Shown: positions 1,964 to 49,213, numbered from the stretch's first letter. The stretch: 64,000 nt of DNA from Acidobacteriota bacterium (GCA_030697165.1 JAUYQQ010000016.1:123638-187637); one strand, 5' to 3'. Notes: generated from the letters alone by a model not told the origin. Made by a program: numbers and translations.

Positions 1964-1984
1964 GTGACATATCATCGGTTCAAC

Positions 1985-2299: not shown

Positions 2300-2310
2300 C
2301 TGATCATGGC

Positions 2311-2433: not shown

Positions 2434-2451
2434 ATGGAGCAGGCTCCCGTC

Positions 2452-2985
2452 ATGAAACTCAAGAAGCTGTATTCATCGCGCGAAGTGGCCCAGCTCACCG
2501 GGCTCAGCGCGCGACAGCTTCAGTGGTGGGCGCAGCGGAAGATCTTTCTGCCTGCGGTCGCCTCACACAAGACCGAGTCCGGCGGCTTTACCGAACGTCG
2601 CTACACCCCGATTGAATTGCTCGAGCTGATGGTGCTGGCGGACCTGCGCCGCAAGGGCTTCACCGTTCAGAAAATTCGCAAGCTGCTGCAGGTGCTGAAG
2701 TCGCGATTCAAGACGCGCCTCTACGACGCCATCGAAGGCGGCGGCTCCGTCACGCTGTTCATCGGCCCTTCGGCAGGCTCCGGGCCGCCCCGAGCGAAGT
2801 CGAGGGGAGACGGCGAGAACATCTACGCCAGGAACGACGCCGGCGACCTGTTCAACCTGCTGGATGATGCCGCGCAGCCGCTGCTGATGCTGGGCGAGGA
2901 CATCAAGCTGCGACAGCTGATTGCGCGTGAGCGGCCGGCGCGCAAGCGCGCCAAGGGCAGGGCGGCCACCCCCAGGCCGGCTTGA
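2452..2985 (+). CDS. MerR-family HTH transcriptional regulator
   Basis: KLYSSREVAQLTGLSARQLQWWAQRKIF helix-turn-helix; ATG 2452 preceded by GGAG (2437-2440), ORF opens at ATG 2434; contains in-frame repeat-derived segment GSGPPRAKSRGDG. Confidence 0.65.
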   Translation: MKLKKLYSSREVAQLTGLSARQLQWWAQRKIFLPAVASHKTESGGFTERRYTPIELLELMVLADLRRKGFTVQKIRKLLQVLKSRFKTRLYDAIEGGGSVTLFIGPSAGSGPPRAKSRGDGENIYARNDAGDLFNLLDDAAQPLLMLGEDIKLRQLIARERPARKRAKGRAATPRPA

Positions 2986-3016
2986 CGCCGCTCGTTCATC
3001 AGACCATAGTAGTCAC

Positions 3017-3310
3017 ATGAAGCGGACCACCAGCGTCGTCCAGCTCAAGGCGCGATTGTCGGAGTACCTGCGGATCGTCAAGGCGGGTCACGAACTCGTG
3101 ATCACGGAACGTGGCGTGCCGGTGGCCCGGGTGGTGCCGCTCGATGAGGCGGAGCGCAAATCGACGCGTCGCGCCAGGCTGGCTCGCGCCGGCCTCCTCA
3201 AGGCGGGCCGGGGAAAACTGCCCAAGTGGTTCCTGCAGGCACCGGCTGGCGAGCCGTCGGGGGTGCTCGAAGCTTTGCTGGAGGAACGTCGCGAGGCCGG
3301 TGACCGCTGA
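3017..3310 (+). CDS. Type II antitoxin, Phd/YefM family
   Basis: ATG 3017 in ORF 2921..3310; N-terminus MKRTTSVVQLKARLSEYLRIVKAGHELVITERGVPVARVVPLDE typical of Phd/YefM antitoxins; stop overlaps toxin start. Confidence 0.75.
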   Translation: MKRTTSVVQLKARLSEYLRIVKAGHELVITERGVPVARVVPLDEAERKSTRRARLARAGLLKAGRGKLPKWFLQAPAGEPSGVLEALLEERREAGDR

Positions 3311-3732
3311 TGTTCTGGGACAGTTCGGCGCTGGTCCCGCTGCTCGTGCCCGAGTCGCAGTCAGTCGTGCTGGCCGCCCTGATTGCCGACGACAAGGAAG
3401 CGACGATCTGGTGGGCCACTCCCCTCGAATGTCATTCGGCGCTGCACCGCCGCCATCGCGAGCACCCGCTGCCCCAGCCGGCCATGACCAGTGCCATCGA
3501 ACGCATTCGGACCCTGGTCGAACACACCGACACCGTCTCGCCGTCTGATGAGCTGCGTCGCCGCGCGGCGCGTCTGCTCGCCGTTCATCCACTGAGGGCT
3601 GCCGACGCGCTTCAACTCGCGGCAGCGCTCTTGTGGTGCGAGGAGCAGCCGCACGCCGAGGGGTTCGTCTCGCTGGACGTCAGGCTGCGCGAGGCCGCGC
3701 TCAAGGAGGGGTTTACGGTGCTGCCGGCGTAG
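3310..3732 (+). CDS. vapC: Type II toxin VapC (PIN-domain ribonuclease)
   Basis: TGATG stop/start overlap with antitoxin; MFWDSSAL... N-terminal acidic residue plus AADALQLA and SLDVRL acidic positions as in PIN domains; 140 aa. Confidence 0.75.
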   Translation: MFWDSSALVPLLVPESQSVVLAALIADDKEATIWWATPLECHSALHRRHREHPLPQPAMTSAIERIRTLVEHTDTVSPSDELRRRAARLLAVHPLRAADALQLAAALLWCEEQPHAEGFVSLDVRLREAALKEGFTVLPA

Positions 3733-3743
3733 ACGTGCGCGCG

Positions 3744-4026
3744 TCACGCGCCCGCAGGCCGGTGCTGCTCTTCCCAGGCGATCAGCTGTTGCCAACGCGG
3801 ATGTATCTCCTCGAGCAACGCCCGGAACGGCGGATGGTCGCGGAGAGACGCGAAGTGCCGACTGTGCTCGCTGAGGAACGGATAGTTCACGAAAGCCCGA
3901 ATCGACAGCCGTTCGCACCCACCGGACGGCCTCGTCATGGTGTCCCATGAGCGCGTAGCCCTCGGCCACGAAGATGGACGCAAACTCGTTCTGCACTGCG
4001 TTGCGCAGGAGCGCGCCGTACGCCAA
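3744..4026 (-). pseudogene. Frameshifted 3' remnant of a TPR-type protein gene
   Basis: Two minus-strand ORFs give one TPR-like C-terminus only when joined across a frameshift near ~3890: 3361..4026 (...FVAEGYALMGHHDEAVRWVRTAVDSGF) and 3744..3983 (VNYPFLSEHSRHFASLRDHPPFRALLEEI...). No N-terminal body upstream. Confidence 0.4.
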
Positions 4027-4065
4027 CGCCCCTTCGGGCCATGCCCGCCTGGCGAAGGTCGCGGA

Positions 4066-4368
4066 CTAGATCTTCTGCCGGAGCATCGGGAAGATCTTCT
4101 CGAGATCTTCCGCCGGGCGTGGAATCACGTGCACGCCGACCAGCTCGCCAACCCGGCGTGCCGCCGCGGCACCCGCGTCGGTCGCAGCCTTCACCGACCC
4201 GACGTCACCACGGACGATGGCGGTGACGAGGCCGGCGTCGACTTTCTGCCAGCCGACAAACACCACGTTGGCGGTCTTGACCATGGCGTCGGCCGCCTCG
4301 ATCATCCCGATCAGGCCGCGGGTTTCCACCATGCCAACTGCTTCGGTGCCGTCAGGTTTGCTCGCCAC
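4066..4368 (-). CDS. Bacterial microcompartment shell protein, BMC-H type (PduA/EutM/CcmK-like BMC domain)
   Basis: 100 aa; [27 protein letters not shown]...[40 protein letters not shown] is near-canonical BMC-H sequence. Confidence 0.85.
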
Positions 4369-4391
4369 GAATGCATTCTACGCTAACGGAA

Positions 4392-4436
4392 GGTGCCTAG
4401 GGTGCCTAGGGTGCCTCAGGTGCCTAAGGTGCTGGG
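4392..4436. repeat. Five tandem 9-bp units GGTGCCTAG (degenerating)
   Basis: ggtgcctag ggtgcctag ggtgcctca ggtgcctaa ggtgctggg; reverse-complement relatives at 13733-13780. Confidence 0.8.
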
Positions 4437-4437
4437 G

Positions 4438-5652
4438 TTAGGTAATGCGCCCGCGGGCGGCGATGGGCAGCGGTTCGACCGTGTCGCCGTCCACCAGCCA
4501 GGCCTGGTCGACCAGGTTCGATACGACACACGAGTGATTTGGCACGATCCGGACGAGGTCGCCGGGCTCGAGCGTGGTCGAGCCGGCCGTGGCTTTCACC
4601 GTCGCGTGCTCTTCTGACAGCCGCTCGATCAGCAGCGTGGTGTCGGCGACCTGCGGTCCCGACCAGAGCCCTTCTCCCGACGAGTAGTTCCCTCCCGACA
4701 AGGCGTGCCCTCCCGACAAGGCGTGCCCTCCCGCCAGCGAGTGAAGCACCGTCCCGTAACCGGGGGCGAGCTGAAATCCGCGAGCCCCGTCATTGGTCAG
4801 GGTCTTTGAGCCAGCGTCGAGGATGATCCGGTCCGCGGCCGGCTTGCTCACCACGCGCGCCAGCACCGTGAGGGCGCAGTCGTCGAGCGTTGCGGCGCCG
4901 AGCGCTACCTGGGTGCGGTCGAAGTAGACGTAGTTGCCGGGCCGGTACTCGGTGAAGCCGTCCTGTTGCAGCGAGAAGCGCGCCGGCGGCGTGGCGCCAG
5001 CGCTCACTTCAGCGATGGCGACTCCCGCCGCGCGGCACCGTGCCACCAGATCGCGCAGCGTCCGTGCCTCGCCCTCGGCCATCTGGCGCAATTCGTCTTC
5101 CGAATGCGCGTGATACGCGTGGCCCGCGTGGGCCAGCAATCCGCGCAGCCGCAGACCGGGAAGCGCGGCGACGCCCTTGATCATGTCCACCGCACCCGCG
5201 GCTGCCGGGTCGATGCCGCAGCGGTGAAACCCAACATCTACTTTCACGAGCACGTCGACCTGCCGGCCCGCGCGCATCATGGCGTCGGACCACTGCCGCG
5301 CTACCACGGGGTGATCGACGATAAACGACAGGTGAGTGCGATCGAGCAGCGCGACTACGCGATCGGCATTGGCCGGATTGAGCGGATAGGGGATCCGGAT
5401 GTCTGGTTTGGCAGCTTGCCCTGAGCGAAGTCGAGGGGCAAACACTTCAGCCTCGCCGAGCTTCGCGCAACAAATGCCGATGGCGCCGCGCGCGATCTGC
5501 CAGCCTGCGACGATGGGACTCTTGTGGGTCTTGGTGTGGGGCCGCAGCCTGACGCCGCGCGCATCCGCCGCGGCCTGCATGCGATCCAGGTTGCGCTCGG
5601 CGCGGGCGCGATCGATCAGGACAGCCGGAGTGGCGAGCCCATTAATGTTCAT
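4438..5652 (-). CDS. PLP-dependent D-serine dehydratase-like / D-threonine aldolase family enzyme (DSD1 family, alanine-racemase N-terminal fold)
   Basis: ATG 5652 (MNINGLATPAVLID...); RLRPHTKTHK PLP-lysine motif, LLAHAGHAY, C-terminal LSEEHA...IVPNHSCVV; carries two in-frame repeat-derived insertions. Confidence 0.75.
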   Translation of the reverse strand: MNINGLATPAVLIDRARAERNLDRMQAAADARGVRLRPHTKTHKSPIVAGWQIARGAIGICCAKLGEAEVFAPRLRSGQAAKPDIRIPYPLNPANADRVVALLDRTHLSFIVDHPVVARQWSDAMMRAGRQVDVLVKVDVGFHRCGIDPAAAGAVDMIKGVAALPGLRLRGLLAHAGHAYHAHSEDELRQMAEGEARTLRDLVARCRAAGVAIAEVSAGATPPARFSLQQDGFTEYRPGNYVYFDRTQVALGAATLDDCALTVLARVVSKPAADRIILDAGSKTLTNDGARGFQLAPGYGTVLHSLAGGHALSGGHALSGGNYSSGEGLWSGPQVADTTLLIERLSEEHATVKATAGSTTLEPGDLVRIVPNHSCVVSNLVDQAWLVDGDTVEPLPIAARGRIT

Positions 5653-5787
5653 GACTCGTCGCCTGTAGTCGACCAATTACTACCGGGTCGTTCCGTAGGA
5701 ACGACCCTTTGGGGGTCGCGGAGCCAGGTGGCGATATTACTGATCCAGCTGAGACGCTCCACTAGGCTCCCGCCCCGGCCACCGCGA

Positions 5788-6921
5788 TCACTGCTGCGAC
5801 TTCTTCTTTGCGGCTTCTCGCTCCTGCGCGCGGGCGCCGCTCATCACGCCTTCGAGGCCGTAGTTGGCCTCGTGGCAGGCGTACTCGTAGACCTGCTCGT
5901 CGGGTCGCATTGCGCGGAACTCCAACTCGCCGGTAAACGGCGCCGTGAACGTGGTCGGATCCTCGACGGTAAACCGGTACTTCAGGGTGGTGGCATCCTT
6001 GCGCGTGAAGCGTTCGGTGACCTTCAGGTTCTCCCACGAGCCGCGAAAGCCGTGGTCCGGGTGGAAATTGGTGGTCTCGACGACGAGCGTGTCGCCTTCC
6101 CAGCGGCCGATCGAGTCGCCGAACCACTGGCGGAAGCTCGCGGGCGGATGCGTGCCGCCCATCCGGACGGTCCGCACGTCGTGCACCATCTCCGTGAGGA
6201 TCATCACGTGGTCCTTCGTCTGCACGATGGTGTAGCTGTTGTTGTAGAAGTAGTTGGGCAGCATGGGCGGCCCCAGGTTGTTACCAAACGACGTGATGCA
6301 GCGCTCGGCGAGCGGCCGCAGTTCGGGATGGTCGAACTCGCCGCCGGCTTTCTTGCGCGCGGCCGCTGCTTCGGCCAGGCGCGCCCGCCCTTCAGCCGTC
6401 AGCGCGGGGACGCGGCCGTTCGGCGGATCGATCAGGATCGAGCTGCGCGGCTGGCCATCGACGCGTAGCACGCGATCGCCGGGATCGACCCAGAACGAGT
6501 TGTAGCCGCCGACCACGCCGGCGCCGGCCTGCCACACGCGCTCGAGGTAGGTCGGTTCGGCGTTAGGGCTCTTGCGCGTTTCGCCGCCCACCGGCGGGGC
6601 GCTGCGATTCGGATCGCTGTCGGCTTCGCGGGCATCGATCGCGTTTTGTGTCTTGCGTTCTTCGTCCGCGGCCGCTTCCTCGGTGAGCACGAGCGGCAGG
6701 TTCGCGCCCATGCGTTCGAGCGGCGTGATGGTGGCGTTGGTCCAGTTGCCCTGGAGGCTGGGACGGCCGTCGCTGGTGCGTGGAATGGCGCCCGCCCGAG
6801 GCGCCGCGGGTTTCTGGGCGGCGGGCTTTTGGCCGGCCGCGGGTTTGGCCGCGGGCGCTTGCGCGCCGGCCGCGACGAGCCCGAGTATCGCGGCGGTCAA
6901 GGTGAGGCCGACGGCTTTCAC
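5788..6921 (-). CDS. Secreted hypothetical protein, paralog of 6918..7787
   Basis: GTG 6921 (VKAVGLTLTAAILGLVAAGAQA signal peptide) overlaps upstream stop (GTGA); shares IGRWEGDTLVVETTNF...LKVTERF core with neighbour. Confidence 0.6.
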   Translation of the reverse strand: MKAVGLTLTAAILGLVAAGAQAPAAKPAAGQKPAAQKPAAPRAGAIPRTSDGRPSLQGNWTNATITPLERMGANLPLVLTEEAAADEERKTQNAIDAREADSDPNRSAPPVGGETRKSPNAEPTYLERVWQAGAGVVGGYNSFWVDPGDRVLRVDGQPRSSILIDPPNGRVPALTAEGRARLAEAAAARKKAGGEFDHPELRPLAERCITSFGNNLGPPMLPNYFYNNSYTIVQTKDHVMILTEMVHDVRTVRMGGTHPPASFRQWFGDSIGRWEGDTLVVETTNFHPDHGFRGSWENLKVTERFTRKDATTLKYRFTVEDPTTFTAPFTGELEFRAMRPDEQVYEYACHEANYGLEGVMSGARAQEREAAKKKSQQ

Positions 6922-35693: not shown

Positions 35694-35718
35694 TCCCTGA
35701 TCCCTGATCCCTGATCAG
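35611..35718. repeat. Heptamer repeat hairpin: GGGATCA x8, CGTTCCC x3, TGATCCC x3 + TGATCAG
   Basis: Counted directly: units start 35611, 35618 ... 35660; inverted units 35691-35718; holds the stop codons of both convergent genes (35691-35693 and 35715-35717); 12 GATC sites. Confidence 0.9.
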
Positions 35719-38594
35719 AACGACATCTGCATGCCGAAGCGGATATAGCGCGCGTCCATGATGGCGGTCGGTCTCATCCACGCGTTGGTCGCTGGGTTGG
35801 CACCATACGTTTCGTTGACCCTGGTCACGGTGCCCGCGTTCAGGATGTTGAAGAAGTCGGCGAAGCCCTGGATGCGGGTGCGGTTGCCGACACGGAAGGT
35901 GCGGCCGAGACGCAGGTCGAGTTGGTTGAAGGTGTCCAAGAACACGGTGTTAGGTTGAACGAGGTTGACCCCGATCGTGGTCGCGCCGGCCGTCGAGCCA
36001 ACGATCGGCCGGCCGGCGATGCCGGCGGTCACCGTGTAGTTGGCGGCCACGCTCGGCCCCGGCCGCGACAGGAACGAGCCGCTCAGCTGGAACTCATACG
36101 GCAGCTGATACGCGGCCGACATCTTGAACGTGGTGCGGAACGGCGGCACCGCGTCACAGAAGCGCGCGCTGTTCGGGTTGTCGCGCTCGTCGCACGAGGT
36201 CGTCGCCCGGCGGTCGGTGGTGATGCCGCCAAACAGCAACAGCTTGGTGAACCGCGCGTTGGCGCTCACTTCGAAGCCGTTGTAGACCGAGGTGTTGATG
36301 TCCGAGAACGTCCGGAGGTTGTCGGTGGCCACGCCGAGCTTGTTCGCGTTCAGCGAGTGCATGGTGATGGCGGCGCCTGAGGCCGGCAACCGCGGATCGG
36401 TCGGGGTGGCAATCGAGAACGGCGACCAGTCGGTGACCGCCAGGTTGGTGTTGTCGGTCACATCCAGGTTGTAGAACTGGCGCCGGTAGAAGCCGGCGGT
36501 CATCGACAGGCGATCCAACAGCTGGTGCTGCACGGTCGCGTTGTATTCCCAGTTGTAGCCGCGCAGCAGATCCGGATCGGGCCGGCTGGTGATGCCGCCG
36601 AAGTTCGACGTGCCGCCGAACACCTCGCCCGTCTGGACGTTGCCGGCGGCATCGTAGAGGGACTTGTTGCGGTCGAGGTCGATCCAGGCGCGGGGCTGCG
36701 TCGAATAGGTCATGCCGTTGAAGATCGCAGCGTAGCCGGCCGCGGCTGAGGCGATGTACTTGCTCGCATTCACCTTGAGGGCGGTCTTGCCGTTGCCGAA
36801 CACGTCGTACGCCGCGGCCATGCGCACCGACCAGTCATTCCAGTTGGGAACGTCCTTGATCTCGGCGAAGCTGCGCGCCTGGATCCACGTGCTCGCCGGC
36901 GCCGACTGGGCGGGGACCATCGCGTTGAAGTGGTCGAAACGGCCGCCGAGGTTGAGCGTGAGCTTGTCGATCGTCCAGGTGTCCTGGATGAAGAAGCCAA
37001 AGTCGTTCTTGACTTTCTGTTGGGCCGTGGTGGGGCCGTTGTGCACGACGACGGCGATCGGGCAGGGCAGCGCGGTGCACGGGATCGGGTTGGTGGCGCT
37101 GGCGGGCGCGCCGAGGAGGCCGTTGTTGAACACCAGCGTGTTGATCTGGGCGTTCGACGAGAACGTCCTCGAGTTGGTGCCCCACTGCATGGTGACGCCG
37201 GTCTTGAAGGCGTGCGAGCCGGTGATGTAGCTGGCCGACGCCGCGGAATTGTAGCTCTTGGTCCAGCTCGTATACGGCGGAATCGTGTTGCCGCAGGCCA
37301 CCGTCAACCTGCCGGTGGTCTGTTCCAGGCGGGGCAAGTCTGTGGGGCCGACGCTTTCACGGCAGTTCTGTTCGTAGTCCTGCGTGTAATACGAGATGCC
37401 GGCCTCGAGCAGCAGCTTGTTGGTGGTGGTCTGCGTCCACTTGAGCTGCGGAACCCAACCCAACCCGAACGCGTCGGTCGAGGCTTCGGGCGATGTGGTC
37501 GGCAGGGTGTTGAAGCCGTTGAAGAACTCGCCGTTGTACTGGCGGTCGAGATAGAAGCGGACCTTGTCCTTCTGCGACGCCTGCCAGGTCAGCCTCGTCA
37601 CCGCGCTGTAGTTCCCCATGGCCTGGCGATATGCCTGGCTGCCGTCGTCGAACGCGGAGCTGGCGACGTAGGTCTTGTTGTCCTCGTACTTGTAGGTGAA
37701 GTAAAACCACAGTTTGTCGCGTTTGATTGGGCCGCCGAACGACGGGTTGATCTGGTAGGTATAGGCGATGCTGGGCTGCGGCACGCCTGCCGCCCTCACC
37801 TCGTCCGACCGGTTGTCGGCCTGCAACCCACCGTTCATGCCGTAGGCGAAGAACGTGCCGGAGAAGGTGTTGCCGCCGTCCTTCGGCGTGCTGTTGATGC
37901 GCAAGCCGCCGTTCTGCATCTCGGCCGACTCGGCGCCGGTGGTAAAGGTGACTTCCTGGATGCTGGCGTCGTTCATGTAGAACCCGCTGTACTGGCCGCT
38001 GCCGCACAGGTTGTTGACGCGCAAGCCGTCGATGGCGATCACCATGTCGGCGGTGTTCGAGCCGTGCACGCTCATGCTGTATTGCCCCAGCACGAACGGC
38101 GTCACCGTCGTGCCCGGCAGCAGCAGCGCCCGGGCCGGCGTGTTGCGGATGGGCGTGGGAATCGAATCGAGAATGTCGCGGTTGGCCACGAACTGGGTCC
38201 GGTTGTTGGTCACGTCAACGGTCGGCGTCGCGCCGGTGACCGTGACCGACTCTTCGAGCGCGCCGACCTCGAGCCCAACGTTAATCTGCGCCGAGAAGGC
38301 GCCCTCGAGCACCACGTCCTCGCGCCGCACCGTCTTGAACCCCGGCAGGGTGAACACGACCTGATAGCGCCCTGGGCTGAGGTCCACGATCCGGTACTGC
38401 CCGGACCCGTCGGTGACCACGGTGCGGGCCTTTTCGATCAGCGCCGGGCTGGACGCCTCGACCGTGACCCCGGGCAACACGGCGCCGGATCCGTCGCGGA
38501 CCACGCCGGCGATTGAGGCCTGCGCACTGGCCTCCCTGGACGTGATGAACAACGCCACACAGAGGACTGCTGCGCACAACACAACTCGACGCAT
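35715..38594 (-). CDS. TonB-dependent receptor with N-terminal carboxypeptidase-regulatory-like domain
   Basis: ATG 38594 signal peptide MRRVVLCAAVLCVALFITSREASA; SIAGVVRDGSGAVLPGVTVEA...GQYRIVDLSPGRYQVVFTLPGF domain; C-terminal ...RYIRFGMQMSF*. Confidence 0.8.
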   Translation of the reverse strand: MRRVVLCAAVLCVALFITSREASAQASIAGVVRDGSGAVLPGVTVEASSPALIEKARTVVTDGSGQYRIVDLSPGRYQVVFTLPGFKTVRREDVVLEGAFSAQINVGLEVGALEESVTVTGATPTVDVTNNRTQFVANRDILDSIPTPIRNTPARALLLPGTTVTPFVLGQYSMSVHGSNTADMVIAIDGLRVNNLCGSGQYSGFYMNDASIQEVTFTTGAESAEMQNGGLRINSTPKDGGNTFSGTFFAYGMNGGLQADNRSDEVRAAGVPQPSIAYTYQINPSFGGPIKRDKLWFYFTYKYEDNKTYVASSAFDDGSQAYRQAMGNYSAVTRLTWQASQKDKVRFYLDRQYNGEFFNGFNTLPTTSPEASTDAFGLGWVPQLKWTQTTTNKLLLEAGISYYTQDYEQNCRESVGPTDLPRLEQTTGRLTVACGNTIPPYTSWTKSYNSAASASYITGSHAFKTGVTMQWGTNSRTFSSNAQINTLVFNNGLLGAPASATNPIPCTALPCPIAVVVHNGPTTAQQKVKNDFGFFIQDTWTIDKLTLNLGGRFDHFNAMVPAQSAPASTWIQARSFAEIKDVPNWNDWSVRMAAAYDVFGNGKTALKVNASKYIASAAAGYAAIFNGMTYSTQPRAWIDLDRNKSLYDAAGNVQTGEVFGGTSNFGGITSRPDPDLLRGYNWEYNATVQHQLLDRLSMTAGFYRRQFYNLDVTDNTNLAVTDWSPFSIATPTDPRLPASGAAITMHSLNANKLGVATDNLRTFSDINTSVYNGFEVSANARFTKLLLFGGITTDRRATTSCDERDNPNSARFCDAVPPFRTTFKMSAAYQLPYEFQLSGSFLSRPGPSVAANYTVTAGIAGRPIVGSTAGATTIGVNLVQPNTVFLDTFNQLDLRLGRTFRVGNRTRIQGFADFFNILNAGTVTRVNETYGANPATNAWMRPTAIMDARYIRFGMQMSF

Positions 38595-38719
38595 GTTCGA
38601 CTCCCTCGGGTTCGATGGATTGACGAAGTGATGCCGTGCATCAGTCGCGGACATTAAGGGGGACTGGCCGTGGTGTCAAGACAATTGGATACACGCCGCC
38701 CGGAATATCATGGCCCGGC

Positions 38720-39556
38720 ATGACGCCCCTTACGTCCTGTGACACCGCCCCTCTCTTCCGTCCGTTGTCGCGGCAGTTGGTGGGCTTGTTGCGGGCATTG
38801 CCGGCCGACGACTGGCTCCGGCCCACGGTCGCGGGCGCCTGGCGGGTGCGCGACGTGGCGGCCCACCTGCTTGACGGCCAGCTACGCAAGCTCTCGGCCC
38901 AGCGCGACGTCCACCTCACCCCGCCCGATCGCCCCATCCAGTCGGACCAGGACCTCGCGCGGTTCATCAACGCGGTCAACGCCGCCGGCGTGGCCTTTGG
39001 CGCGCGCCTGAGCACCGCGGTGTTGACCGACCTGCTCCAGCACGCCGGCGAGCAACTGGCCGACCTCGTGACCAGCCTCGACCCCCATGGGCCGGCGATC
39101 TACGCCGTGAGCTGGGCCGGCGAGCAGCAGTCCGAGAACTGGATGGACACCGGGCGCGAATACACCGAGCACTGGCACCACCAGATGCAAATCCGCGACG
39201 CCACCGGCCGCCCGCGGTTGCTGGCGCCGCGATGGCTCGAGCCGTTGCTCGCGATCTCCGTGCGGGCGTTGCCCTATGCCTATGCCGGCGTGCGCGCGGC
39301 GCCCGGCACCACCATCACGCTCGCGGTCACCGGTGAAACGACCGGCAGCTGGACGCTCGTGCGCGTCGACGACCGCTGGCAGATCTGGCGCGGTCGGCCG
39401 GCGGCGCCAGACGCGATGGTCACGATCGCGGCCGATGATGTGTGGCGGATGTTCTACAACGCGCTGGCGGGAGACGCACTGCGGCGGCGCGTGACGGTGG
39501 CGGGAGATGCCGACCTGGCCGCGCCGTTGCTGCGAGCCAGGTCGGTCATTGTGTAG
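38720..39556 (+). CDS. DinB-like / mycothiol maleylpyruvate isomerase N-terminal domain family protein
   Basis: WRVRDVAAHLLDGQLRKLS and TEHWHHQMQIRDA His-rich motifs typical of the DinB_2/TIGR03083-type fold; ATG 38720. Confidence 0.55.
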   Translation: MTPLTSCDTAPLFRPLSRQLVGLLRALPADDWLRPTVAGAWRVRDVAAHLLDGQLRKLSAQRDVHLTPPDRPIQSDQDLARFINAVNAAGVAFGARLSTAVLTDLLQHAGEQLADLVTSLDPHGPAIYAVSWAGEQQSENWMDTGREYTEHWHHQMQIRDATGRPRLLAPRWLEPLLAISVRALPYAYAGVRAAPGTTITLAVTGETTGSWTLVRVDDRWQIWRGRPAAPDAMVTIAADDVWRMFYNALAGDALRRRVTVAGDADLAAPLLRARSVIV

Positions 39557-40105
39557 TTATTTCTTCTTTGCGATCTTCAGTTCGCCGAGCTTGGCGACCA
39601 TATCGGGACCAGCCGACGTGGCCTTCACCGCGGTGTCGATGTGGAGGATCTTTCCGTCCGGGTCGATGTAGAACGTCCACCGCCGCGCCATGCCGGTGGC
39701 GCCGAGGACGCCGTACTTGGCGCCGATCTCCTTGGTGACATCGCTCAGGATCGGATAGTCCGCCTCGTGCATCTGGGCGAACTTCGTGTTGTCCTCAATC
39801 GCGTCCGTGCTGATCATGTAGTACGCGACGTTGTACTGCCGGATGAGATCGCCGCTCTCACGGAGCGACTTGCATTCGGCCGTTCAACCACCGGTAAAGG
39901 CTTTCGGGAACCACGCGAGTACCACCGCCTGCTTGCCCTTCGACTCGGCGAGCGTGTGGGTCTTACCATCCGATCCGGGTGCCGAGAACGCGGGGGCCAT
40001 GTCACCAACCTTCAATTCCGCTGGTGCCTGGGCCATGCCCGCCGCGCTCGTCACCAGGCTCAAGGCGGCGCCGACGCCAATCTTGAGCCATGACTTCATA
40101 CGCAT
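39557..40105 (-). CDS. Secreted peroxiredoxin (AhpC/TSA-Bcp-like) with in-frame TGA (39884-39886) at the peroxidatic Cys position; candidate selenoprotein
   Basis: ORFs 39884..40240 and 39557..39817 are in the same frame. Read-through gives ...VVLAWFPKAFTGG-TGA-TAECKSLRESGDLIRQYNVAYYMISTD.... GGAGGA Shine-Dalgarno before ATG 40105; signal peptide MRMKSWLKIGVGAALSLVTSAAGMA. Confidence 0.65.
39851..39869 (-). promoter_or_regulatory. Candidate bacterial SECIS-like hairpin downstream of the in-frame UGA
   Basis: Minus-strand RNA GUCGCUC-CGUGA-GAGCGGC: 7-bp stem (one G-U), 5-nt loop containing GU, stem starts 18 nt from the U of UGA. Confidence 0.35.
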
Positions 40106-40160: not shown

Positions 40161-43100
40161 GTGAGAGTTTGGGTGCGACGGGGGCTGGTCATTCCGGCGG
40201 CGATAGCCGCGGGGATGACGTTGGGCGCCCTGTTACTCATTCACACCCCGTGGGCGCGCAGTCGTGCCCTGTCCTGGGCCGGCGATTTCGTCGCCCGCTA
40301 CGACCTGGTACTCAGCGCGGACGCCCTGAGCTACAACGCGCTGACCCGCCGCATTACGCTCACCGGCGTGCGCCTCGCGGCCGAGGGCCACGACGACCGG
40401 CCATTCCTGGTCGCCCAACGCGTCGAAGTCACGCTGCCGTGGATGGTGTTCCGCGGCCGCTTCGCCATCGATCATCTCAGCATCGACAACGGCATTGTCG
40501 ACATCGTTCGCGACGAGAACGGCGTGACCAACCTGCCGCCGGGCTCTGACCAGCCCACGCCGGAGACGGCGCGCCGCCTCGACCTGCGCGGCCTGACGCT
40601 GCGCGGCCTCGACGTGCAGTACGCCGACCTGGTCCGCGACTGGGGCGTCAAGATTCCGCAGATCGAGTCAGCGCTCACCAGCGGCGCGCTCGGCGCCGAG
40701 GGCGCGTTCGCCGTGCGGGGCCCGCTTGCCGTGCGACTGCGCGAGCGCACCTTGACCATGGCCCCCTTCGACACGGTGATAACCTTCGATGGTTCCGACG
40801 TGACGTTGGCCGACGCCCGGCTGGTCTCGTCGGAACTGAACGCCTTTCTGAGCGGCACGATCCACCGCGTGCTGGATTCGCCAAGCCTGGCCCTCACGCT
40901 CAAGGGCACCGTCGCTCTCGAGCACGCCACCAAATGGATCCCGCCGCCGCCCGTGCCGGTCGGCGGCCTGGTCACCATCGACGGCACCATCGCCGGACCG
41001 ACCAGCGACGTCGTGACGACGCTGCGCGTGTCGAGCAACACGCTCGCGGTCGGGCGCGAGCGCGAGCTCACCCTGTCGGGTCCCGTGCTGGTCACCTTCG
41101 AATCGTTCTCGGGCACGGCGCTCGCCATCGTCCCGCGATCGGGCGGCGAGATTCGCGCCGACTTCAACGTGCCCTGGGGCGGCACCGCGATCAGCACGGC
41201 CACCGCCTCGTGGCGGGCGCTCGACGCGCAAACCGCGCTCGACATGGCCAACGTCACCCCGCAGGCGATTGCCGCCGGTTTCGACGGCAGCGGCACGTTC
41301 GAGTTCGGCGAGCCGCGCCGCTTCGCGATCACCAACCGCGCCACCGGTCGCGCCAAGCGGAACCACGTGGCCATGACCGGCACCCTCCGGGCGACGATCG
41401 TCGGCGACGACTACCGCTTCGATCACAATCACACGCTGCCAGGTGCGGCAATCGAGGGCCGCATGGCGGGCCGCATCAACCGCGATTCGGCGTTGCTGTC
41501 GACCATGACCGGCCCCGCGCATGCGCGGGTGAGCGACGTCGCCACAGCGGCGCAAGGCCTGGCGATGCTGGGGTTTCCGGTCCCCGAGATCGCCGCCGAC
41601 GTGCATGGCGCGATCGACGTGCCCATGACCCTGGCGGGTTCCTACAAGCTGCCGCAGATCGAGACGCAGGTGTCGGGCGATGACGTGGACGTGCCGCTGC
41701 TGGGCCGCGTCCGTCTCACGACGCACCTGGTCGCTGACACCACGCGCGCCGACATTACGAATCTCGAGGTGCGCCAGGGCTCGTCGCTCATCACCGGCAA
41801 CGCGGTCGCCAACATCACCGAGAGCACCTGGACCGGCCAGTTCAACGTCGATGCCCCCCGCGCCGAAGAGTTGCAGGCCGATGTGCCCGAGGCGTGGCGC
41901 GTGGCTGGTCCGCTGACGGTCGGCGCGACGCTTGGCGGCACCTTCGACGTTTACAGGCTCGACACCACCATCACCGGTTCGGCGCTGACGTGGGCCGGGC
42001 AGACCATCGACACCGCGAACGCAAAGGCCGTGGTGACCCCCGATGCCATCGACGTGACGTCGCTCGAACTGCGGCAGGGCGTGGGCTTGCTCGACGGCCG
42101 CGTGCGCTACGCCTGGGAGACCGGCGCGTACGACGCCAGCCTGAAGGGCGACCGGCTGTCGTGGCAGGGCGCCCTGCTTGCGCCCAACGACACGCAGGCC
42201 GTGTTCTCGATGCAGTTCGACGGCAAGGGCACCACTGCCCAGCCGCGTGGGCAGGGGCGCGTGGACTTCTCGTTGACCGGCGGGGACGCCGGCACCCTGA
42301 TCGGCGCGGGTGAAATGACGGCGGACCTGATGGGCGATCACGCGCGCGTCGTCGTCCGGTTGCCCTCGATTGGCGCACTGGTCAACGCCGACGTGGCCAC
42401 CGCCTCGCCTTACGACTACAAGGCGACGGCCATCCTCGATCGCCTCGAACTGGCGAGGCTGGCGCCGTTCCTCGACGCCGTCGAATCCGAGATCCTTGGC
42501 TTCGCCAGCGGCACGGTGACGGCGTCGGGCCGCTTCGCCGACGCCCGCGACCGCGTCGCCATTGTCAACCTGACCGAGCTCGACGCCGGGATTGGCGGCG
42601 TGCCCGTGAGCTTGAACGCGCCGGTCCACGTCGTGTTGCGCGGCGACGATGTGACGCTCAAGGACCTGAATGTCCGCATCGGCGCGGGCCGGTTGACGGC
42701 GGCGGGTGAGTGGAACACGAAACTCGACGGTGCGTTCCAGGGACAGTTCATCGGCGAGTTCCAGGACGCCATCCGCATGGGCCGCGCCGTGGGCGTGCCG
42801 GTCACCTTCGACGGCTCGGGCCCGCTGTCGTTGGACCTCCGATCGAACGGCAGCCGCGCCGGCACCCTCGCGACGCTGTCGCTCAAGGCCGGCACCTTCA
42901 ACTGGGGCGGGGGTCCGCCAGCGGTCACGAACCTGAACCTCGAGGCCGTGCTGCAGGGCGAGTCGCTGACCGTGTCGCGGCTCTCCGGCGATGTGGCCAG
43001 CGGCGGCGTGGTGGGCAGCTTTGCCGCCACCGCGCAAGCCGAGGTCCCGGTCCTCGAACTGTCGGCCATCGTCGGTGAGCTCACCGTCGATGCCGCCAAG

Positions 43101-46100
43101 TTCACGTTCTCTGGGATCCCGGTCGAGCAGCAGCGGCCGTCGCGGGTCGAGTTCGCGCGCGGTTCGCTGGCGGTCGCCGACATCTCGTGGATGGTGGCCA
43201 ACAACCCGCTGGTGATTGACGGGTCGGTGGGCTTTGCCGCCGAGGACCCGCCGCTCGACCTGTCGGTGCAAGGCCTGATTGACCTGCGCGTGCTGTCGGC
43301 CTTCGTCAGCACGCTGGCGTTCGACGGCAACGCCAACCTCAACACCTTGATCGGCGGCACCGTGTCGCGCCCGCTGTTCGACGGCGAGGTGGCCCTGCGG
43401 GACGCCGAAATCGCGATCGCGGAACCGCGCCTGGTGCTGTCGGACCTCAACGGAGTGATCCTGCTCGACGGCCAGCGCGTAGTGCTCGACGGCATTAGCG
43501 GCCTGGCCAATGGTGGCACGCTGGGCCTTGACGGATCGCTGCAGGTGTCGGGCGTCGACGCCATCGACGGCGTCGTCAACATCCAGGCCAAGGGCGTCGC
43601 GATCGAACTGATCGACGGGCTGCGCAGCGAACTGGACGCGCTGATCACGTTTCGCCCCGACCCCAAGGGGCCGACCATCACCGGCGACATCCGGGTGGTG
43701 CAGAGCGCCTACGCCGAAACCATCACGCTCGCGGCATTGGCCCGCCGCGCGACGCTACCGGTCTCGCCAACGCAGCAGCAGCCGTATCTCGATCGCGTGC
43801 GGCTGAACCTGAACGTCACGACCAGCGATGACATGACCGTCGACAACAACTACGGCCGGCTCGCGGCTGCCGTCAACGTGCGTGTCACCGGCACCGCGGC
43901 GGCACCCGGCATGGACGGGCGCATCACGCTGCGCGAAGGTGGCGAGATCTTCCTGGCCGGCCGGACCTTCCGCATCACCCGCGGCGACATTTCGTTCACC
44001 GATCTGCGCCGCATCCGGCCCGAGTTCAACATCGTCGCCGAGGCGCCGCTCGGTGGTGGCGACATGGCCACCCTCACCTTGACCGGGACGCTGGAACGGC
44101 CGTCGATCGACCTGACGTCGGAAGACGGGTCGCGGACGCCGGGCGAGTTGGCGGCACAACTGCTGGGCCAGACCAACACCGGCACCGCGCTCACGCTGCT
44201 GTCGGCCGACCTGCTGGGCGTGACCGGGCGGGCGATTGGCCTCGACACCTTCCGCGTCGAGCGCGGCGAGTTCGAGGATCCCGACTTCCGCGACGACCCG
44301 TCGTTGATCGGCAACGATCGAACGGACCCGACCACGCGCTTGACGCTATCGAAGCGGTTGAGCCGCAAGGTCGAGTTCACGGTGTCGCAGAACTTGCGCG
44401 AGAGCGGCAACACCACCTTCGTCATCAGCTACTACGTGACGCCGACCATCGAGATTCGCGGGTTGTCGCGTGACGACGACACCGCGAGCGTCGGCATTCG
44501 CCATCAGGTGACGTTCGGCGGCGGCGTCGGCCGCAAGCCCACGGAGCTGCGCGTGAAGCAGAAGGTGTCGGCGATTACGTTCGCGGGCGTCGAGCCCGCC
44601 GTTGAGCGGGAGGTGCGCGCCGAGATCTCGCTCGATCCCGGCGACGACTTCGATTTCCTGGTGTTGCAACGCGACGTGGACCGGGTCCGCGATCGCTTCA
44701 AGAAACAGGGCTATTTCGAGGCGCGCGTGCGGACCCGCCGCGTCGACGTGCCTGAGTCAGGCACCGTGGTGGTCGAGTACACGGTGGACCGCGGCCCGCG
44801 CACGGTCCTCGAGGTCATCGGTGCGACCCTGCCGTCGAGCCTCACCGAGGACCTCGAGGAGGCCTGGCATCGCAACGCCTTTGATCAGTTCCTGATCGAC
44901 GATCTCACGCACCGGGTTCGCCGCTACCTGGTCGGCACCAACGAGTTGGGCAGCGTCGTGGTGGGCACGGTCGATCGGCCGCTGCCGAATACCAAGCGGC
45001 TGACCATCGAGGTGACCGAGGGCGTGCGGGTCAGCGGCCGCGAGATTCGGGTCACCGGTCACCAGGCGCTGGACGGGGACCGGCTGCTGGACGCGATCGA
45101 GGCGCAAGGGCTGGACGTAGAGGCGTGGCTCAACCGCAGGCCGGTCGAGGAACTGCTCGTCACCGCCTACCACGCGGCCGGGTACCTCAAGGCCCAGGTG
45201 ACGGGTGGCCCGTTGACCATCGACGGCGACACCGGCGTGCTGCCCATTACCATTGTCGAGGGCCCGCAGACGCAGGTGACGAGTGTCCAGTTCGAGGGCG
45301 TGCCCGAGCGCCGGCTGGCGGCCATCCAGAAGGCCGCCGCTATGCAGACACCTGCGCCGTACGTGGCCACCGAGGTCAGCGCCGCCCGCCTCCGGGTCGA
45401 GGAGCAGTACCGGGGAGACGGCTTCAATGCTGCCGACGTCGAAGTGCTGCCGGAAGTGGCGGCTGACGACACCGTTCGCCTCACGTTCGCGATCACGGAG
45501 GGGCCGCAGCAGGTGCTGCAGGAGGTCGAGACGCGCGGTCTCGAGATCACGCGCGGCGACGTGCTCACCGGCTCGCTGCGCTTCGAGTTGGGCCAGCCAG
45601 TGGATCTCGACGCCTGGGCGGTGGCGCGCAAGCGCCTGTACGACACCAACGTGTTCCGGCTCGTGGACATTCAGGCCGTGCCGGTTGGCGAGCCGGTCGA
45701 TGGCGTTCAGCCGGTGAAGGCCCTGGTGGTGGTGCAGGAGTACCCCCAGTGGACGTTCCGCTATGGCTTTCAGCTGGAAGGCGACCGCGAGCTCAAGCTC
45801 GATGAGTTCACGAGCACCCGCAATGCCGGCGTGGTGGCCGAACTGAAGAACCCGAATCTGTTCGGCCGCGCCCTCACCTTCGGCGCGTTCGGCATGTATC
45901 AGTACGATCGCCAGGACGCAACGCTGTTCCTGGCCACGTCACGGCTGTTCGGCTGGCGGGCCCGGTCGAGCCTGTACGGGTTCTACTCCCGCGATCACAT
46001 TCGCGACGATGACGGGCAGGAGATCGTCGCGATCAACGACGTCCAGGGCTTCAGCGCCGACCAGCGCTGGCGGCCGCGCGGCCTGCAGGTCGTCTACGGC

Positions 46101-46784
46101 TACCGCTTCGAGCGATCGCGGACCTACGACCCCGAACCCGGCAACGACGTGGTGCCGCTCGACTTCGTCAGTAACCTCGCCTCGCTCAGCAGCGCCGCGC
46201 TGTGGGACCGCCGCGACGATCCGCTGGCGCCGGTCAAGGGCACGTTCTCGTCGGCGTCGATCGATCACGCGGCGTCGTGGCTCGGTTCCGACGTCAGCAA
46301 TCGCAAGCTGCTGGTGCAGCAGTACACGTTCGGGTCGCTCGGCCGGGTCGTGTTCGCGTCGCGCGTGCAGTGGGGCAAGAAGTTTGGGCCCGACCCGCTG
46401 TTGCCGAGCGCCCGCTTCAACGCCGGTGGTGCCACCAGCGTGCGCGGCTACGGCGAAGACAGCCTGGGACCGCGCGACTTCTTTGGCCTGCCGCTCGGCG
46501 GCGAAACGCTGCTGGTGCTCAACCAGGAAGTGCGCTTTCCGATCTATCGATGGATCAATGGCGTGAGCTTTGTCGATGCGGGTGACTTGCTGGGCAGTGA
46601 CGAGGCGTTCAGCTGGAGCGCCCTGAAGATTGGCTACGGTGGAGGACTGCGTTTCTCGACGCCGGTCGGCATGCTGCGGGTGGACTACGGTATTCCCGGC
46701 TCGGCCCTGTCCACCGCGACCACCCGGAAGCCCAACAGCCTCAGCGGAGGCCGTTGGTACTTCGGGATTGGGCACATCTTTTAG
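40161..46784 (+). CDS. Giant envelope protein: TamB/AsmA-like N-terminal ~1450 aa (incl. DUF490-type C-terminus) fused to ~5 POTRA repeats and an Omp85 (BamA/TamA-family) beta-barrel
   Basis: Uninterrupted 2207 codons; N-terminal signal anchor GLVIPAAIAAGMTLGALLLI; DUF490-like ...LTGTLERPSIDLTSEDGSRTPGELAAQLLG...VISYYVTPTIEIRGLS...; POTRA-like ~80-aa repeats; barrel motifs SVRGYGEDSLGP, GYGGGLRFSTPVGMLRVDYGIP, terminal ...GIGHIF*. Confidence 0.8.
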   Translation: MRVWVRRGLVIPAAIAAGMTLGALLLIHTPWARSRALSWAGDFVARYDLVLSADALSYNALTRRITLTGVRLAAEGHDDRPFLVAQRVEVTLPWMVFRGRFAIDHLSIDNGIVDIVRDENGVTNLPPGSDQPTPETARRLDLRGLTLRGLDVQYADLVRDWGVKIPQIESALTSGALGAEGAFAVRGPLAVRLRERTLTMAPFDTVITFDGSDVTLADARLVSSELNAFLSGTIHRVLDSPSLALTLKGTVALEHATKWIPPPPVPVGGLVTIDGTIAGPTSDVVTTLRVSSNTLAVGRERELTLSGPVLVTFESFSGTALAIVPRSGGEIRADFNVPWGGTAISTATASWRALDAQTALDMANVTPQAIAAGFDGSGTFEFGEPRRFAITNRATGRAKRNHVAMTGTLRATIVGDDYRFDHNHTLPGAAIEGRMAGRINRDSALLSTMTGPAHARVSDVATAAQGLAMLGFPVPEIAADVHGAIDVPMTLAGSYKLPQIETQVSGDDVDVPLLGRVRLTTHLVADTTRADITNLEVRQGSSLITGNAVANITESTWTGQFNVDAPRAEELQADVPEAWRVAGPLTVGATLGGTFDVYRLDTTITGSALTWAGQTIDTANAKAVVTPDAIDVTSLELRQGVGLLDGRVRYAWETGAYDASLKGDRLSWQGALLAPNDTQAVFSMQFDGKGTTAQPRGQGRVDFSLTGGDAGTLIGAGEMTADLMGDHARVVVRLPSIGALVNADVATASPYDYKATAILDRLELARLAPFLDAVESEILGFASGTVTASGRFADARDRVAIVNLTELDAGIGGVPVSLNAPVHVVLRGDDVTLKDLNVRIGAGRLTAAGEWNTKLDGAFQGQFIGEFQDAIRMGRAVGVPVTFDGSGPLSLDLRSNGSRAGTLATLSLKAGTFNWGGGPPAVTNLNLEAVLQGESLTVSRLSGDVASGGVVGSFAATAQAEVPVLELSAIVGELTVDAAKFTFSGIPVEQQRPSRVEFARGSLAVADISWMVANNPLVIDGSVGFAAEDPPLDLSVQGLIDLRVLSAFVSTLAFDGNANLNTLIGGTVSRPLFDGEVALRDAEIAIAEPRLVLSDLNGVILLDGQRVVLDGISGLANGGTLGLDGSLQVSGVDAIDGVVNIQAKGVAIELIDGLRSELDALITFRPDPKGPTITGDIRVVQSAYAETITLAALARRATLPVSPTQQQPYLDRVRLNLNVTTSDDMTVDNNYGRLAAAVNVRVTGTAAAPGMDGRITLREGGEIFLAGRTFRITRGDISFTDLRRIRPEFNIVAEAPLGGGDMATLTLTGTLERPSIDLTSEDGSRTPGELAAQLLGQTNTGTALTLLSADLLGVTGRAIGLDTFRVERGEFEDPDFRDDPSLIGNDRTDPTTRLTLSKRLSRKVEFTVSQNLRESGNTTFVISYYVTPTIEIRGLSRDDDTASVGIRHQVTFGGGVGRKPTELRVKQKVSAITFAGVEPAVEREVRAEISLDPGDDFDFLVLQRDVDRVRDRFKKQGYFEARVRTRRVDVPESGTVVVEYTVDRGPRTVLEVIGATLPSSLTEDLEEAWHRNAFDQFLIDDLTHRVRRYLVGTNELGSVVVGTVDRPLPNTKRLTIEVTEGVRVSGREIRVTGHQALDGDRLLDAIEAQGLDVEAWLNRRPVEELLVTAYHAAGYLKAQVTGGPLTIDGDTGVLPITIVEGPQTQVTSVQFEGVPERRLAAIQKAAAMQTPAPYVATEVSAARLRVEEQYRGDGFNAADVEVLPEVAADDTVRLTFAITEGPQQVLQEVETRGLEITRGDVLTGSLRFELGQPVDLDAWAVARKRLYDTNVFRLVDIQAVPVGEPVDGVQPVKALVVVQEYPQWTFRYGFQLEGDRELKLDEFTSTRNAGVVAELKNPNLFGRALTFGAFGMYQYDRQDATLFLATSRLFGWRARSSLYGFYSRDHIRDDDGQEIVAINDVQGFSADQRWRPRGLQVVYGYRFERSRTYDPEPGNDVVPLDFVSNLASLSSAALWDRRDDPLAPVKGTFSSASIDHAASWLGSDVSNRKLLVQQYTFGSLGRVVFASRVQWGKKFGPDPLLPSARFNAGGATSVRGYGEDSLGPRDFFGLPLGGETLLVLNQEVRFPIYRWINGVSFVDAGDLLGSDEAFSWSALKIGYGGGLRFSTPVGMLRVDYGIPGSALSTATTRKPNSLSGGRWYFGIGHIF

Positions 46785-47728: not shown

Positions 47729-49213
47729 ATGTCAGATCAAAGACTGAAGATTGCCGTTTTCATCGATTTCGACAACGTCGAAATCGGGGTGAAGACGACC
47801 CTCGGGCTGCCCTTCGATATCGGCGCCGTGCTCGAGGCGATCAAGGAACGTGGTGAGATCATCACCAAGGTCGCCTACGGCGACTGGAAGCGGTCCGGCG
47901 ACTACGGCCGCGCCATGGCCCAGCACGCCGTGCGTCTGGTGCAGCGCGTGCCGACGCCCGGCGGCGACAAGAACGGCGCCGACATCAACCTCGCGCTCGA
48001 CGCCCTCGAAATGGCGTTCACGCATTCCCACATCAACGCCTTCGTCATCGTCGGCGGCGACAGCGACTTCATCACGCTGGTCGAGAAGCTGAAGCAGTAC
48101 GACCGCAAGGTGTTCGTGGTCGGCGGCCGCGCCTTCACCAGCCAGGTGATGCAGAAGAACTGCACCGAGTTCATCGCCTACGAGAACGTCGTGCCCGATC
48201 GCCGCCCCAGCCAGCCGCGGCCCGAGCGCGGCAGCGGCGAGCGGCAGCCGCGCCAGCAGGGCAGCGGCACGCAGCCAATCGAGCAGTCGGTGGCGCTCGT
48301 CAAGCGCGCGCTCAAGGTGCTGGCCGACCGCGAGGTCTCGCCGCAACTGGGCCTGCTCAAGAGCACGCTGTTGCAGCTCGACTCGTCGTTCTCGGAACGC
48401 GACTACGGCGTCGGCAGCTTCCGCGATTTCGCCGACAAGCTGGCCAAGCAGGGCATTGTCACGCTGAAGCACCAGGGCCGCAGCACGCTCGTGGAGTTGA
48501 ATGAAGGCGACGCGAGCGTGGTGGAGACCGCGGCCGCAGCCCCCATGATAGTGCTGACCGATGTTTCGAGCGAGACCATCTCCGCATCGCGCGAAGCCGG
48601 CCGTCGCGCCGCGCGCGAACTGCTGGAGCAGCCCGACCCCGGTCCCGGCGCGGCCGACCTGGACGACGAGAAGGAAACCCGCCCGGCGCCGACCGAGCCG
48701 GCGTCGCTTGGCGACGGCGTCGCCCTGGTGCGCCGCCTCCTGGCTGAAGCGGCGACGCCGCCGCGCTGGCCGATGTATCCGCGGCAGTTCAAGCAGTTCC
48801 TGAAGGCCGCGCAACCGGACTTCGACGAGCGCCGCTACGGGTCGATCGCCGACCTGATGCGCGCGTGCCAGAAGGACGGCATCCTGCGTCTCGAACGCGA
48901 CCGCCAGGGTGGCCTGCGCGTGTTCGCCAACGGCGCCACCGCGCGCGCGACGGTTCCCCACGGGTGGGGCCTCGTCGTGAACAACACGCAGCCACCGGTT
49001 GAGTCGCTCGAGTCGATCGAGCCGTCGCTGCTGGTCGAGCCGCTGCCGCCGGCGGTGGCCGAGCCGATCGCGGAGCCGGTTGACGTCGACGGCAACGTCG
49101 AAGCGACGCCGAAGACCGCCGCCAAGGCCAGGAAAGCGCCACGCGCGAAGAAGACCGCCGCGCCCGCCAAGGCCGAGAAGAAGAAGGCCGCGCCCCGCAA
49201 GAAGAAGGCGTAG
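47729..49213 (+). CDS. NYN (LabA/DUF88-like PIN-fold nuclease) domain protein with two OST-HTH/LOTUS-like modules and a Lys/Ala/Pro-rich basic tail
   Basis: KIAVFIDFDNVEIG...GADINLALDALEMAF...NAFVIVGGDSDFITLVEKLKQYDRKVFVVG (NYN); two ~70-aa ...LKSTLLQLDSSFSERDYGVGSFRDFADKL... / ...FKQFLKAAQPDFDERRYGSIADLMRAC... modules; tail KTAAKARKAPRAKKTAAPAKAEKKKAAPRKKKA. Confidence 0.7.
   Translation: MSDQRLKIAVFIDFDNVEIGVKTTLGLPFDIGAVLEAIKERGEIITKVAYGDWKRSGDYGRAMAQHAVRLVQRVPTPGGDKNGADINLALDALEMAFTHSHINAFVIVGGDSDFITLVEKLKQYDRKVFVVGGRAFTSQVMQKNCTEFIAYENVVPDRRPSQPRPERGSGERQPRQQGSGTQPIEQSVALVKRALKVLADREVSPQLGLLKSTLLQLDSSFSERDYGVGSFRDFADKLAKQGIVTLKHQGRSTLVELNEGDASVVETAAAAPMIVLTDVSSETISASREAGRRAARELLEQPDPGPGAADLDDEKETRPAPTEPASLGDGVALVRRLLAEAATPPRWPMYPRQFKQFLKAAQPDFDERRYGSIADLMRACQKDGILRLERDRQGGLRVFANGATARATVPHGWGLVVNNTQPPVESLESIEPSLLVEPLPPAVAEPIAEPVDVDGNVEATPKTAAKARKAPRAKKTAAPAKAEKKKAAPRKKKA

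Follow-up and report, generated by a model that had tools for sequence, protein, structure and literature searches.

A reading frame that gene callers split in two at an in-frame UGA very probably constitutes one intact gene for a selenocysteine (Sec)-containing peroxiredoxin, its UGA recoded by way of a SECIS element, in an acidobacterium that resembles the Vicinamibacterales. The gene lies within a 64-kb stretch of DNA from an Acidobacteriota bacterium (64,000 nucleotides, hereafter the window), and its UGA stands at the codon of the catalytic residue, where it almost certainly encodes selenocysteine. The evidence that carries this reading is largely comparative: relatives keep the UGA, an open frame downstream of it, and a hairpin, in agreement with a first-pass annotation of this DNA that had held the gene to be intact rather than decayed.

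Gene architecture

The landmarks of the peroxiredoxin gene and its neighbors are collected in Table 1. The coordinates and the description of two split ORFs given by the first-pass annotation were accurate: sequence and translation agree that both halves belong to a single frame, of which the TGA is the sole in-frame interruption, embedded in the residues AWFPKAFTGG-TGA-TAECKSLRESGD. This frame displays the G+C excess at third codon positions expected in a window of 66.6% G+C, and the GGAGGA Shine-Dalgarno sequence noted earlier is confirmed upstream of its ATG. The N-terminus consists of MRMK, a hydrophobic core, and A-Q-A, and every homolog in the alignment likewise begins with a hydrophobic segment; the protein is probably exported to the periplasm. 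As had also been recorded, the TGA is followed by xxxC, reading U74-T-A-E-C78, in which Cys78 is by analogy the probable resolving partner of a U-x3-C pair.

Table 1. Features of the putative Sec-peroxiredoxin gene and of neighboring genes in the window
Feature	Position	Strand	Details
CarboxypepD_reg + outer-membrane beta-barrel protein	35715-38654	minus	979 aa
MDMPI_N/DinB-like protein	38636-39556	plus	306 aa
Predicted Sec-peroxiredoxin CDS	40105..39557	minus	182 codons; ATG 40105-40103; TGA = codon 74; stop TAA 39559-39557
Shine-Dalgarno-like GGAGGA	40118-40113	minus	7 nt 5' of ATG; read from sequence
Probable Sec-type signal peptide	40025..40105	minus	residues 1-27; cleavage site uncertain
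UGA predicted to be read as Sec (U74)	39884..39886	minus	peroxidatic position in P67-x3-T71-x2-U74
Cys78 codon TGC, probable resolving Cys	39872..39874	minus	invariant in 28/28 aligned Sec + Cys forms
Predicted bacterial SECIS core	39851..39869	minus	7-bp stem GUCGCUC (39869-39863) / GAGCGGC (39857-39851); loop CGUGA (39862-39858)
Possible extended SECIS, lower helix	39835..39883	minus	approximately positions 7-13 with 43-49 after UGA; from MFE structures
Arg142 codon, conserved catalytic Arg	39680..39682	minus	R-W-T-F-Y-I-D strand; invariant in alignment; matches Arg of BCP structures
Single ORF with DUF748, TamB, POTRA, and Omp85 barrel	40161-46784	plus	2207 aa; TamB 1114-1450, POTRA 1468-1545, Omp85 barrel 1899-2207
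NYN-domain protein with OST-HTH domain	47729-49213	plus	494 aa

Protein family, fold, and active site

In profile searches that use Cys for codon 74, both halves of the split gene are spanned by the Pfam AhpC-TSA profile (PF00578; E 1.2e-28; 100 bits, cut-off 26), which extends over residues 33-155 and covers model positions 1-123 of 124. Among NCBIfam models, the product scores best with Bcp/PrxQ-type thiol peroxidases, in every case under the equivalog cut-off (PRK09437, 75.9 bits vs. 140; NF053650, 64.6 bits vs. 260), and the peroxiredoxin is BCP-like but no BCP/PrxQ equivalog. Membership in PrxU (NF040737; 48.1 bits vs. a cut-off of 270) and in Prx-SUH (NF045827; 29.9 bits vs. 298) was rejected, as was ResA-like membership, in each case by curated score cut-offs.

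Alignments of the product to solved BCP structures have E-values from 5e-18 to 3e-15 and put the TGA precisely on the peroxidatic Cys of these proteins, with P67-K-A-F-T71-G-G-U74 lying over the active-site motif of 3drn, 5epf, and 2ywn. The earlier placement of the TGA at the peroxidatic Cys is borne out by Cys homologs, whose Cys falls exactly in the TGA column. An alignment of 28 Sec and Cys sequences leaves P67, T71, C78, and R142 invariant, and alignment to structures matches R142 to the Arg of the BCP R-x-T-F-x-I-D strand. In an AlphaFold model computed from the 28-sequence alignment (pLDDT 87.8), residues 1-25 are disordered or unstructured (pLDDT < 50), and position 74 sits two residues ahead of a helix formed by residues 76-83. 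The best PDB match of the model is the BCP 3drn (E 3.8e-16, target-normalized TM 0.85), followed by AhpE and PrxQ, and the top 50 PDB matches listed are peroxiredoxins or thiol peroxidases. Judged from these alignments, the product is best described as an AhpC/TSA peroxiredoxin of the BCP/PrxQ-like branch, with a complete catalytic set of P67, T71, U74, and R142.

A selenoprotein with these features might instead serve as a periplasmic thiol:disulfide oxidoreductase of the TlpA/ResA-like or 'Prx-like' kind, and not as a peroxidase. Such a role would suit the signal peptide and the closely spaced U...C pair; selenoproteins of a 'Prx-like thiol:disulfide oxidoreductase' family have been described, and the product scores weakly against the NCBIfam models for ResA (35.9 bits) and for a WAxxUGC ResA-like family (18.9 bits). 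However, P-x3-T-x2-U combined with the invariant Arg142 is the peroxiredoxin set and not W-C/U-x-x-C, the spacing of the pair is U-x3-C rather than UxxC, and the best sequence and structure matches are all BCP, PrxQ, or AhpE peroxidases. We consider the oxidoreductase role unlikely and retain a Sec-dependent peroxidase as the preferred assignment.

Conservation of the UGA codon

A scan of species representatives, with one genome per species, listed 80 loci, mostly in MAGs of Vicinamibacterales or Acidobacteriota. Among these listed loci, the catalytic codon reads TGA in 46 cases and TGC in 34; both TGA and Cys forms occur in two of the 80, and another motif-search outcome, the lack of any match, applies to 2/80. 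Amino acid identity between the TGA-form homologs and the peroxiredoxin of the window ranges from about 50 to 93%. With the window's own gene added to the 46 homologs, the set comprises 47 TGA forms, and in every one of them (47/47) the frame stays open for 105-115 codons past the TGA, ending near the C-terminus of Cys-form proteins. Pairwise differences per site at codon positions 1/2/3 amount to 0.23/0.20/0.42 downstream of the TGA and 0.31/0.33/0.53 upstream of it, and the excess of third-position substitutions in the downstream part indicates that it is under coding constraint.

In a neighbor-joining tree, the TGA forms fall into one clade apart from the Cys clade, except for one locus (L028) that branches near the root; the TGA forms thus appear to represent one old clade. 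Nested within the Sec clade is a single Cys form (GGCTKECKSMREHG) from a Pirellulales-labelled MAG (L068, catalytic codon at 3172), which has likely either reverted from Sec to Cys or been transferred into a lineage that lacks Sec decoding. In two loci, a Cys paralog is found directly upstream of the Sec form and on the same strand (L028, codons at 2483 and 3208; L033, codons at 2489 and 3130), a tandem arrangement that suggests an origin of the Sec clade by tandem duplication.

The first-pass annotation had also proposed a check of the genome for further TGA-interrupted redox genes. Within the 64-kb window there is no other gene with coding signal on both sides of a TGA, the only candidates being antisense frames of real genes. 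A same-frame pair at 818-1963 and 1964-2299 was considered as a second TGA gene and rejected, as it appears to be two adjacent genes.

A predicted SECIS hairpin

The hairpin that had been proposed 18 nt from the UGA (Table 1) is present as described: its stem starts at nucleotide 18 when the U of UGA is counted as 1, and its loop begins 21 nt after the UGA. The consensus bacterial SECIS (bSECIS) model, in the form given in PMC13188914 after Zhang and Gladyshev (2005), has a loop of 3-9 nt on a stem of 4-16 bp, a G in the first two loop positions that is usually followed by G or U, a distance of 16-37 nt from the UGA to the loop, and an MFE of -7.5 kcal/mol or lower. The window hairpin fits this model in its loop (5 nt), stem (7 bp), G position (C-G-U), spacing (21 nt), and MFE (-9.6 kcal/mol), so that the compatibility in position with bacterial SECIS elements claimed at first now extends to all four published criteria.

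Taken as a single sequence, the 76-nt region of the window folds at z = -1.22 against shuffled sequences, which is not significant, and the weight of the hairpin therefore comes from the comparison of relatives. In a 57-nt alignment of the 47 TGA forms, every distinct sequence (42/42, 100%) forms all seven pairs of the stem. Double-sided, compensatory changes are seen at three stem pairs, in two independent lineages only: in L041 and L053, one C-G pair becomes U-A and another becomes G-C as the encoded peptide changes from RESG to RDNG, and in L079 a G-C pair becomes A-U. In the Cys forms, pairing at the same columns drops to 69%, and full pairing occurs in 0 of 33. Synonymous sites in the stem are frozen in the Sec forms only, the third-position entropy of the six stem codons being 0-0.3 bits in Sec forms vs. 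0.5-1.3 bits in their Cys counterparts. For Arg, nearly every Sec form is fixed for the codon CGU, which would not be expected to be a favored one at 66.6% G+C. The peptide S-L-R-E-S-G is under a dual constraint, fixed by its own RNA stem and changing to S-L-R-D-N-G only with compensatory base changes. Loop variants among the distinct sequences are CGUGA (33), CGUGC (9), and CGGGC (2). Collectively, these patterns show that the UGA forms, and they alone, possess this mRNA hairpin, which is maintained by selection and suitably spaced from the UGA.

In ten of the 33 Cys forms (e.g., L026, L030, and L042), the place of the SECIS is taken by another hairpin, GUCGCUG...CGGCGAC, whose 7-bp stem (positions 18-24 paired with 33-39) encloses a loop of 8 nt. 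This Cys-form hairpin could result incidentally from conservation of the peptide KSLAENGD, or it could possibly be a SECIS precursor. Given its occurrence, the presence of a hairpin alone cannot discriminate between the two forms; the frozen synonymous sites do. The lower helix that would extend the SECIS (Table 1) is weakly supported, with 74.5% of cells paired and zero double-sided changes, and it is not claimed here. The peroxiredoxin SECIS has no evident likeness to that of E. coli fdhF.

Selenocysteine machinery in the lineage

Sec machinery exists in the Vicinamibacterales lineage. SelA was first found in Vicinamibacterales MAGs by means of a degenerate DNA pattern for its pyridoxal-phosphate motif; two SelA proteins located by this pattern score 530 and 570 bits on TIGR00474 (cut-off 268), and SelA of this family is widespread in the Vicinamibacterales. 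Two scans with Vicinamibacterales SelA, from which 80 of more than 500 matches were listed, place SelA in at least nine assemblies that contain a TGA-form peroxiredoxin, namely, CAYGMD (whose peroxiredoxin is 92% identical to that of the window), VFZG (82%), JADZCN, JALHON, CAWJMJ, JBQTIE, DASPFV, CAWGSJ, and JADGOB; the first two come from close relatives of the window organism.

A compact selD-selC-selB-selA cluster occupies positions 1758-6733 of a 5.4-Mb contig from one Vicinamibacterales MAG (L155; CBDHFM010000030.1). Its tRNA-Sec is found both by ARAGORN and by Rfam RF01852 (65.6 bits), its selB scores 332 bits on TIGR00475, and its selD scores 383 bits on TIGR00476. The selD frame contains an in-frame TGA at G-U-A-A-K (..AAAG-U-AAKLGP..), and this SelD is predicted to be itself a selenoprotein. 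In the selD hairpin, the apical loop reads CGUGC and lies 32 nt past the UGA; in this one case its sequence is the same as one of the peroxiredoxin loop variants, and, being common to the selD hairpin of one Vicinamibacterales MAG, the CGUGN loop may be lineage-specific. The best peroxiredoxin homolog in the L155 genome is a Cys form.

Apart from L155, the flanks (6-8 kb) of about 150 Vicinamibacterales selA loci contain no selB, selD, or selC. The flanks of the 80 peroxiredoxin loci hold no sel genes and no tRNA-Sec, the only tRNAs there being tRNA-Thr and tRNA-Pro, and across the selA flanks and peroxiredoxin flanks examined, SelB, SelD, and tRNA-Sec were not seen in any TGA-form genome. Within the 64-kb window there is no selA, selB, selC, or selD, nor any tRNA, Rfam family, SelD or SelB motif, or tblastn match to SelB or SelD. 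For the lineage, the search for sel genes called for by the first-pass annotation yields the SelA-containing TGA-form assemblies and the L155 cluster, and within the window itself it comes back empty.

Decoding of the UGA and public annotation

A UGA read without selenium would be an alternative to recoding as Sec: TGA could stand for Trp or Gly in a variant code, or Trp or Cys could be inserted by near-cognate decoding. In favor of such a reading, JGI products of relatives (P0001-P0007 and P0009) have Trp at the Sec position, and a protein search that returned thousands of full-length sequences finds 'W' in the Sec column of the closest JGI homologs (62-75% identity) and Cys in more distant homologs. 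Yet the DNA underlying two of the 'W' products (L355, 79-642; L356, 501-1046) has TGA at that codon, and the Trp therefore stems from a gene caller that applied a TGA = Trp code to short contigs, a gene-calling artifact. TGA also serves as an ordinary stop, terminating 16 of the 33 confident ORFs in the window, where it is the commonest stop, and 10 of the 47 TGA-form genes; it is not reassigned in the window organism. Moreover, Trp would be unable to replace a catalytic Cys, and the conserved SECIS-like hairpin together with the sel genes of the lineage points to Sec. We accord very little credence to decoding without selenium.

A pseudogene with a TGC-to-TGA nonsense mutation at the catalytic Cys codon, for which speak the single base change needed, the two fragments seen by ORF callers, and the lack of Sec machinery within the 64-kb window, is effectively refuted by the conservation data, namely, the recurrence of the TGA across 46 species-level genomes at identities as low as about 50%, intact downstream frames with a coding-type substitution pattern, synonymous sites frozen across the hairpin, and the grouping of the TGA forms in what appears to be one old clade, and is in our estimation exceedingly improbable. 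Recoding of the UGA as Sec remains the preferred reading.

Under Sec recoding, the public record of this gene is in need of correction. Logan assemblies split it into ORFs of 73 and 86 aa, and among the protein-search matches there is no full-length NCBI product for the 82-93% identical genes present in GenBank MAGs, which indirectly suggests that the Vicinamibacterales Sec-peroxiredoxin clade is not annotated as a selenoprotein. The value of the finding for annotation is that the window gene and at least 46 orthologs are publicly mis-called, either split or translated with Trp. Corrected calls would add a selenoprotein to the Vicinamibacterales, which are common and abundant soil bacteria, and their defense against oxidative stress may depend on selenium supply.

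Proposed mechanism

During translation, the UGA at codon 74 would be recoded as Sec, with the mRNA hairpin acting as a SECIS that recruits SelB-GTP-Sec-tRNA(Sec) to the ribosome, a role consistent with its conservation and its fit to the consensus model. The predicted signal peptide would then direct the product to the periplasm. In that compartment, Thr71 and Arg142 would activate Sec74 within the P-x3-T-x2-U pocket, and the reduction of H2O2 or organic hydroperoxides by Sec74 would convert it to selenenic acid; the invariant Cys78 would resolve the selenenic acid into an intramolecular selenenylsulfide, and a thioredoxin-like reductant would regenerate the enzyme. We infer this Sec74/Cys78 catalytic cycle by analogy with the atypical 2-Cys BCPs.

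Genomic neighborhood and significance

Divergent from the Sec-peroxiredoxin gene lies a single large ORF (Table 1) that looks like a fusion of an inner-membrane TamB with a TamA/BamA-like outer-membrane protein. The two genes are adjacent in 20 of the 46 TGA-form loci and in 0 of the 32 Cys-only loci, and identity in the TamB N-terminal part across the adjacent loci goes down to 33%. The remaining neighbors, of the CarboxypepD_reg, MDMPI_N/DinB-like, and NYN kinds, have no evident link to selenium.

A broader proposal, which we put forward tentatively and regard as rather doubtful, is that these genes define a clade of exported Sec-peroxiredoxins, as yet uncatalogued and extending across the order Vicinamibacterales, characterized by a U-x3-C pair, a near-invariant CGUGN SECIS common to selD, and a conserved site divergent from TamB-POTRA-Omp85. 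If true, it would imply a selenium-dependent peroxide defense dedicated to the cell envelope, and also that SelB recognizes a motif unlike the one familiar from E. coli.

Comparison with known systems

Classical BCP/PrxQ proteins, represented by E. coli Bcp (PRK09437) and by the structures 3drn, 5epf, and 3hjp, share with the window protein the same motif and Arg, and their resolving Cys lies in the same helix. In E. coli Bcp, this pair is Cys45/Cys50, a C-x4-C arrangement in alpha2. Unlike these proteins, the window protein is predicted to have Sec in place of Cys and a U-x3-C pair (+4) as opposed to the classical C-x4-C (+5); in the alignment with 5epf, the second Cys residues of the two proteins lie one position apart. 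To our knowledge, an N-terminal signal peptide is not a feature of classical BCPs.

That selenocysteine peroxiredoxins are known in bacteria, as the first-pass annotation remarked, is well established (PMC1794560; PMC5029168; PMC13188914). The founder of the bacterial selenoprotein Prx family (PF00578, TxxU) is PrxU of Eubacterium acidaminophilum, verified experimentally (Sohling et al., 2001, as related in PMC13188914), and the family grew from 12 proteins in 2006 (PMC1794560) to 91 proteins in 78 organisms in 2016 (PMC5029168). As Sec-peroxiredoxins have been known since 2001, the window gene adds a member or clade to a known family; it leaves known selenocysteine biology unchanged and will not surprise the specialist. 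Our search of the literature found no paper linking the Vicinamibacterales to selenoproteins. Like the PrxU family, the window protein has an AhpC/TSA domain with a predicted Sec for the peroxidatic Cys in P-x3-T-x2-U, a putative SECIS within the coding region just past the UGA, and Cys homologs. Unlike PrxU, it is BCP-like and short, has its second Cys at +4, and begins with a predicted signal peptide. The hosts differ as well, being Vicinamibacterales for the window protein and anaerobic Firmicutes or Deltaproteobacteria for the PrxU family.

A further parallel is offered by the Prx-like oxidoreductases (UxxC/UxxU) and Prx-SUH, which are likewise thioredoxin-fold selenoproteins in or near PF00578 and whose prediction follows the same logic of a Sec/Cys pair. 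Their motifs are UxxC and CxxU, in contrast to the TxxU...C of the window protein.
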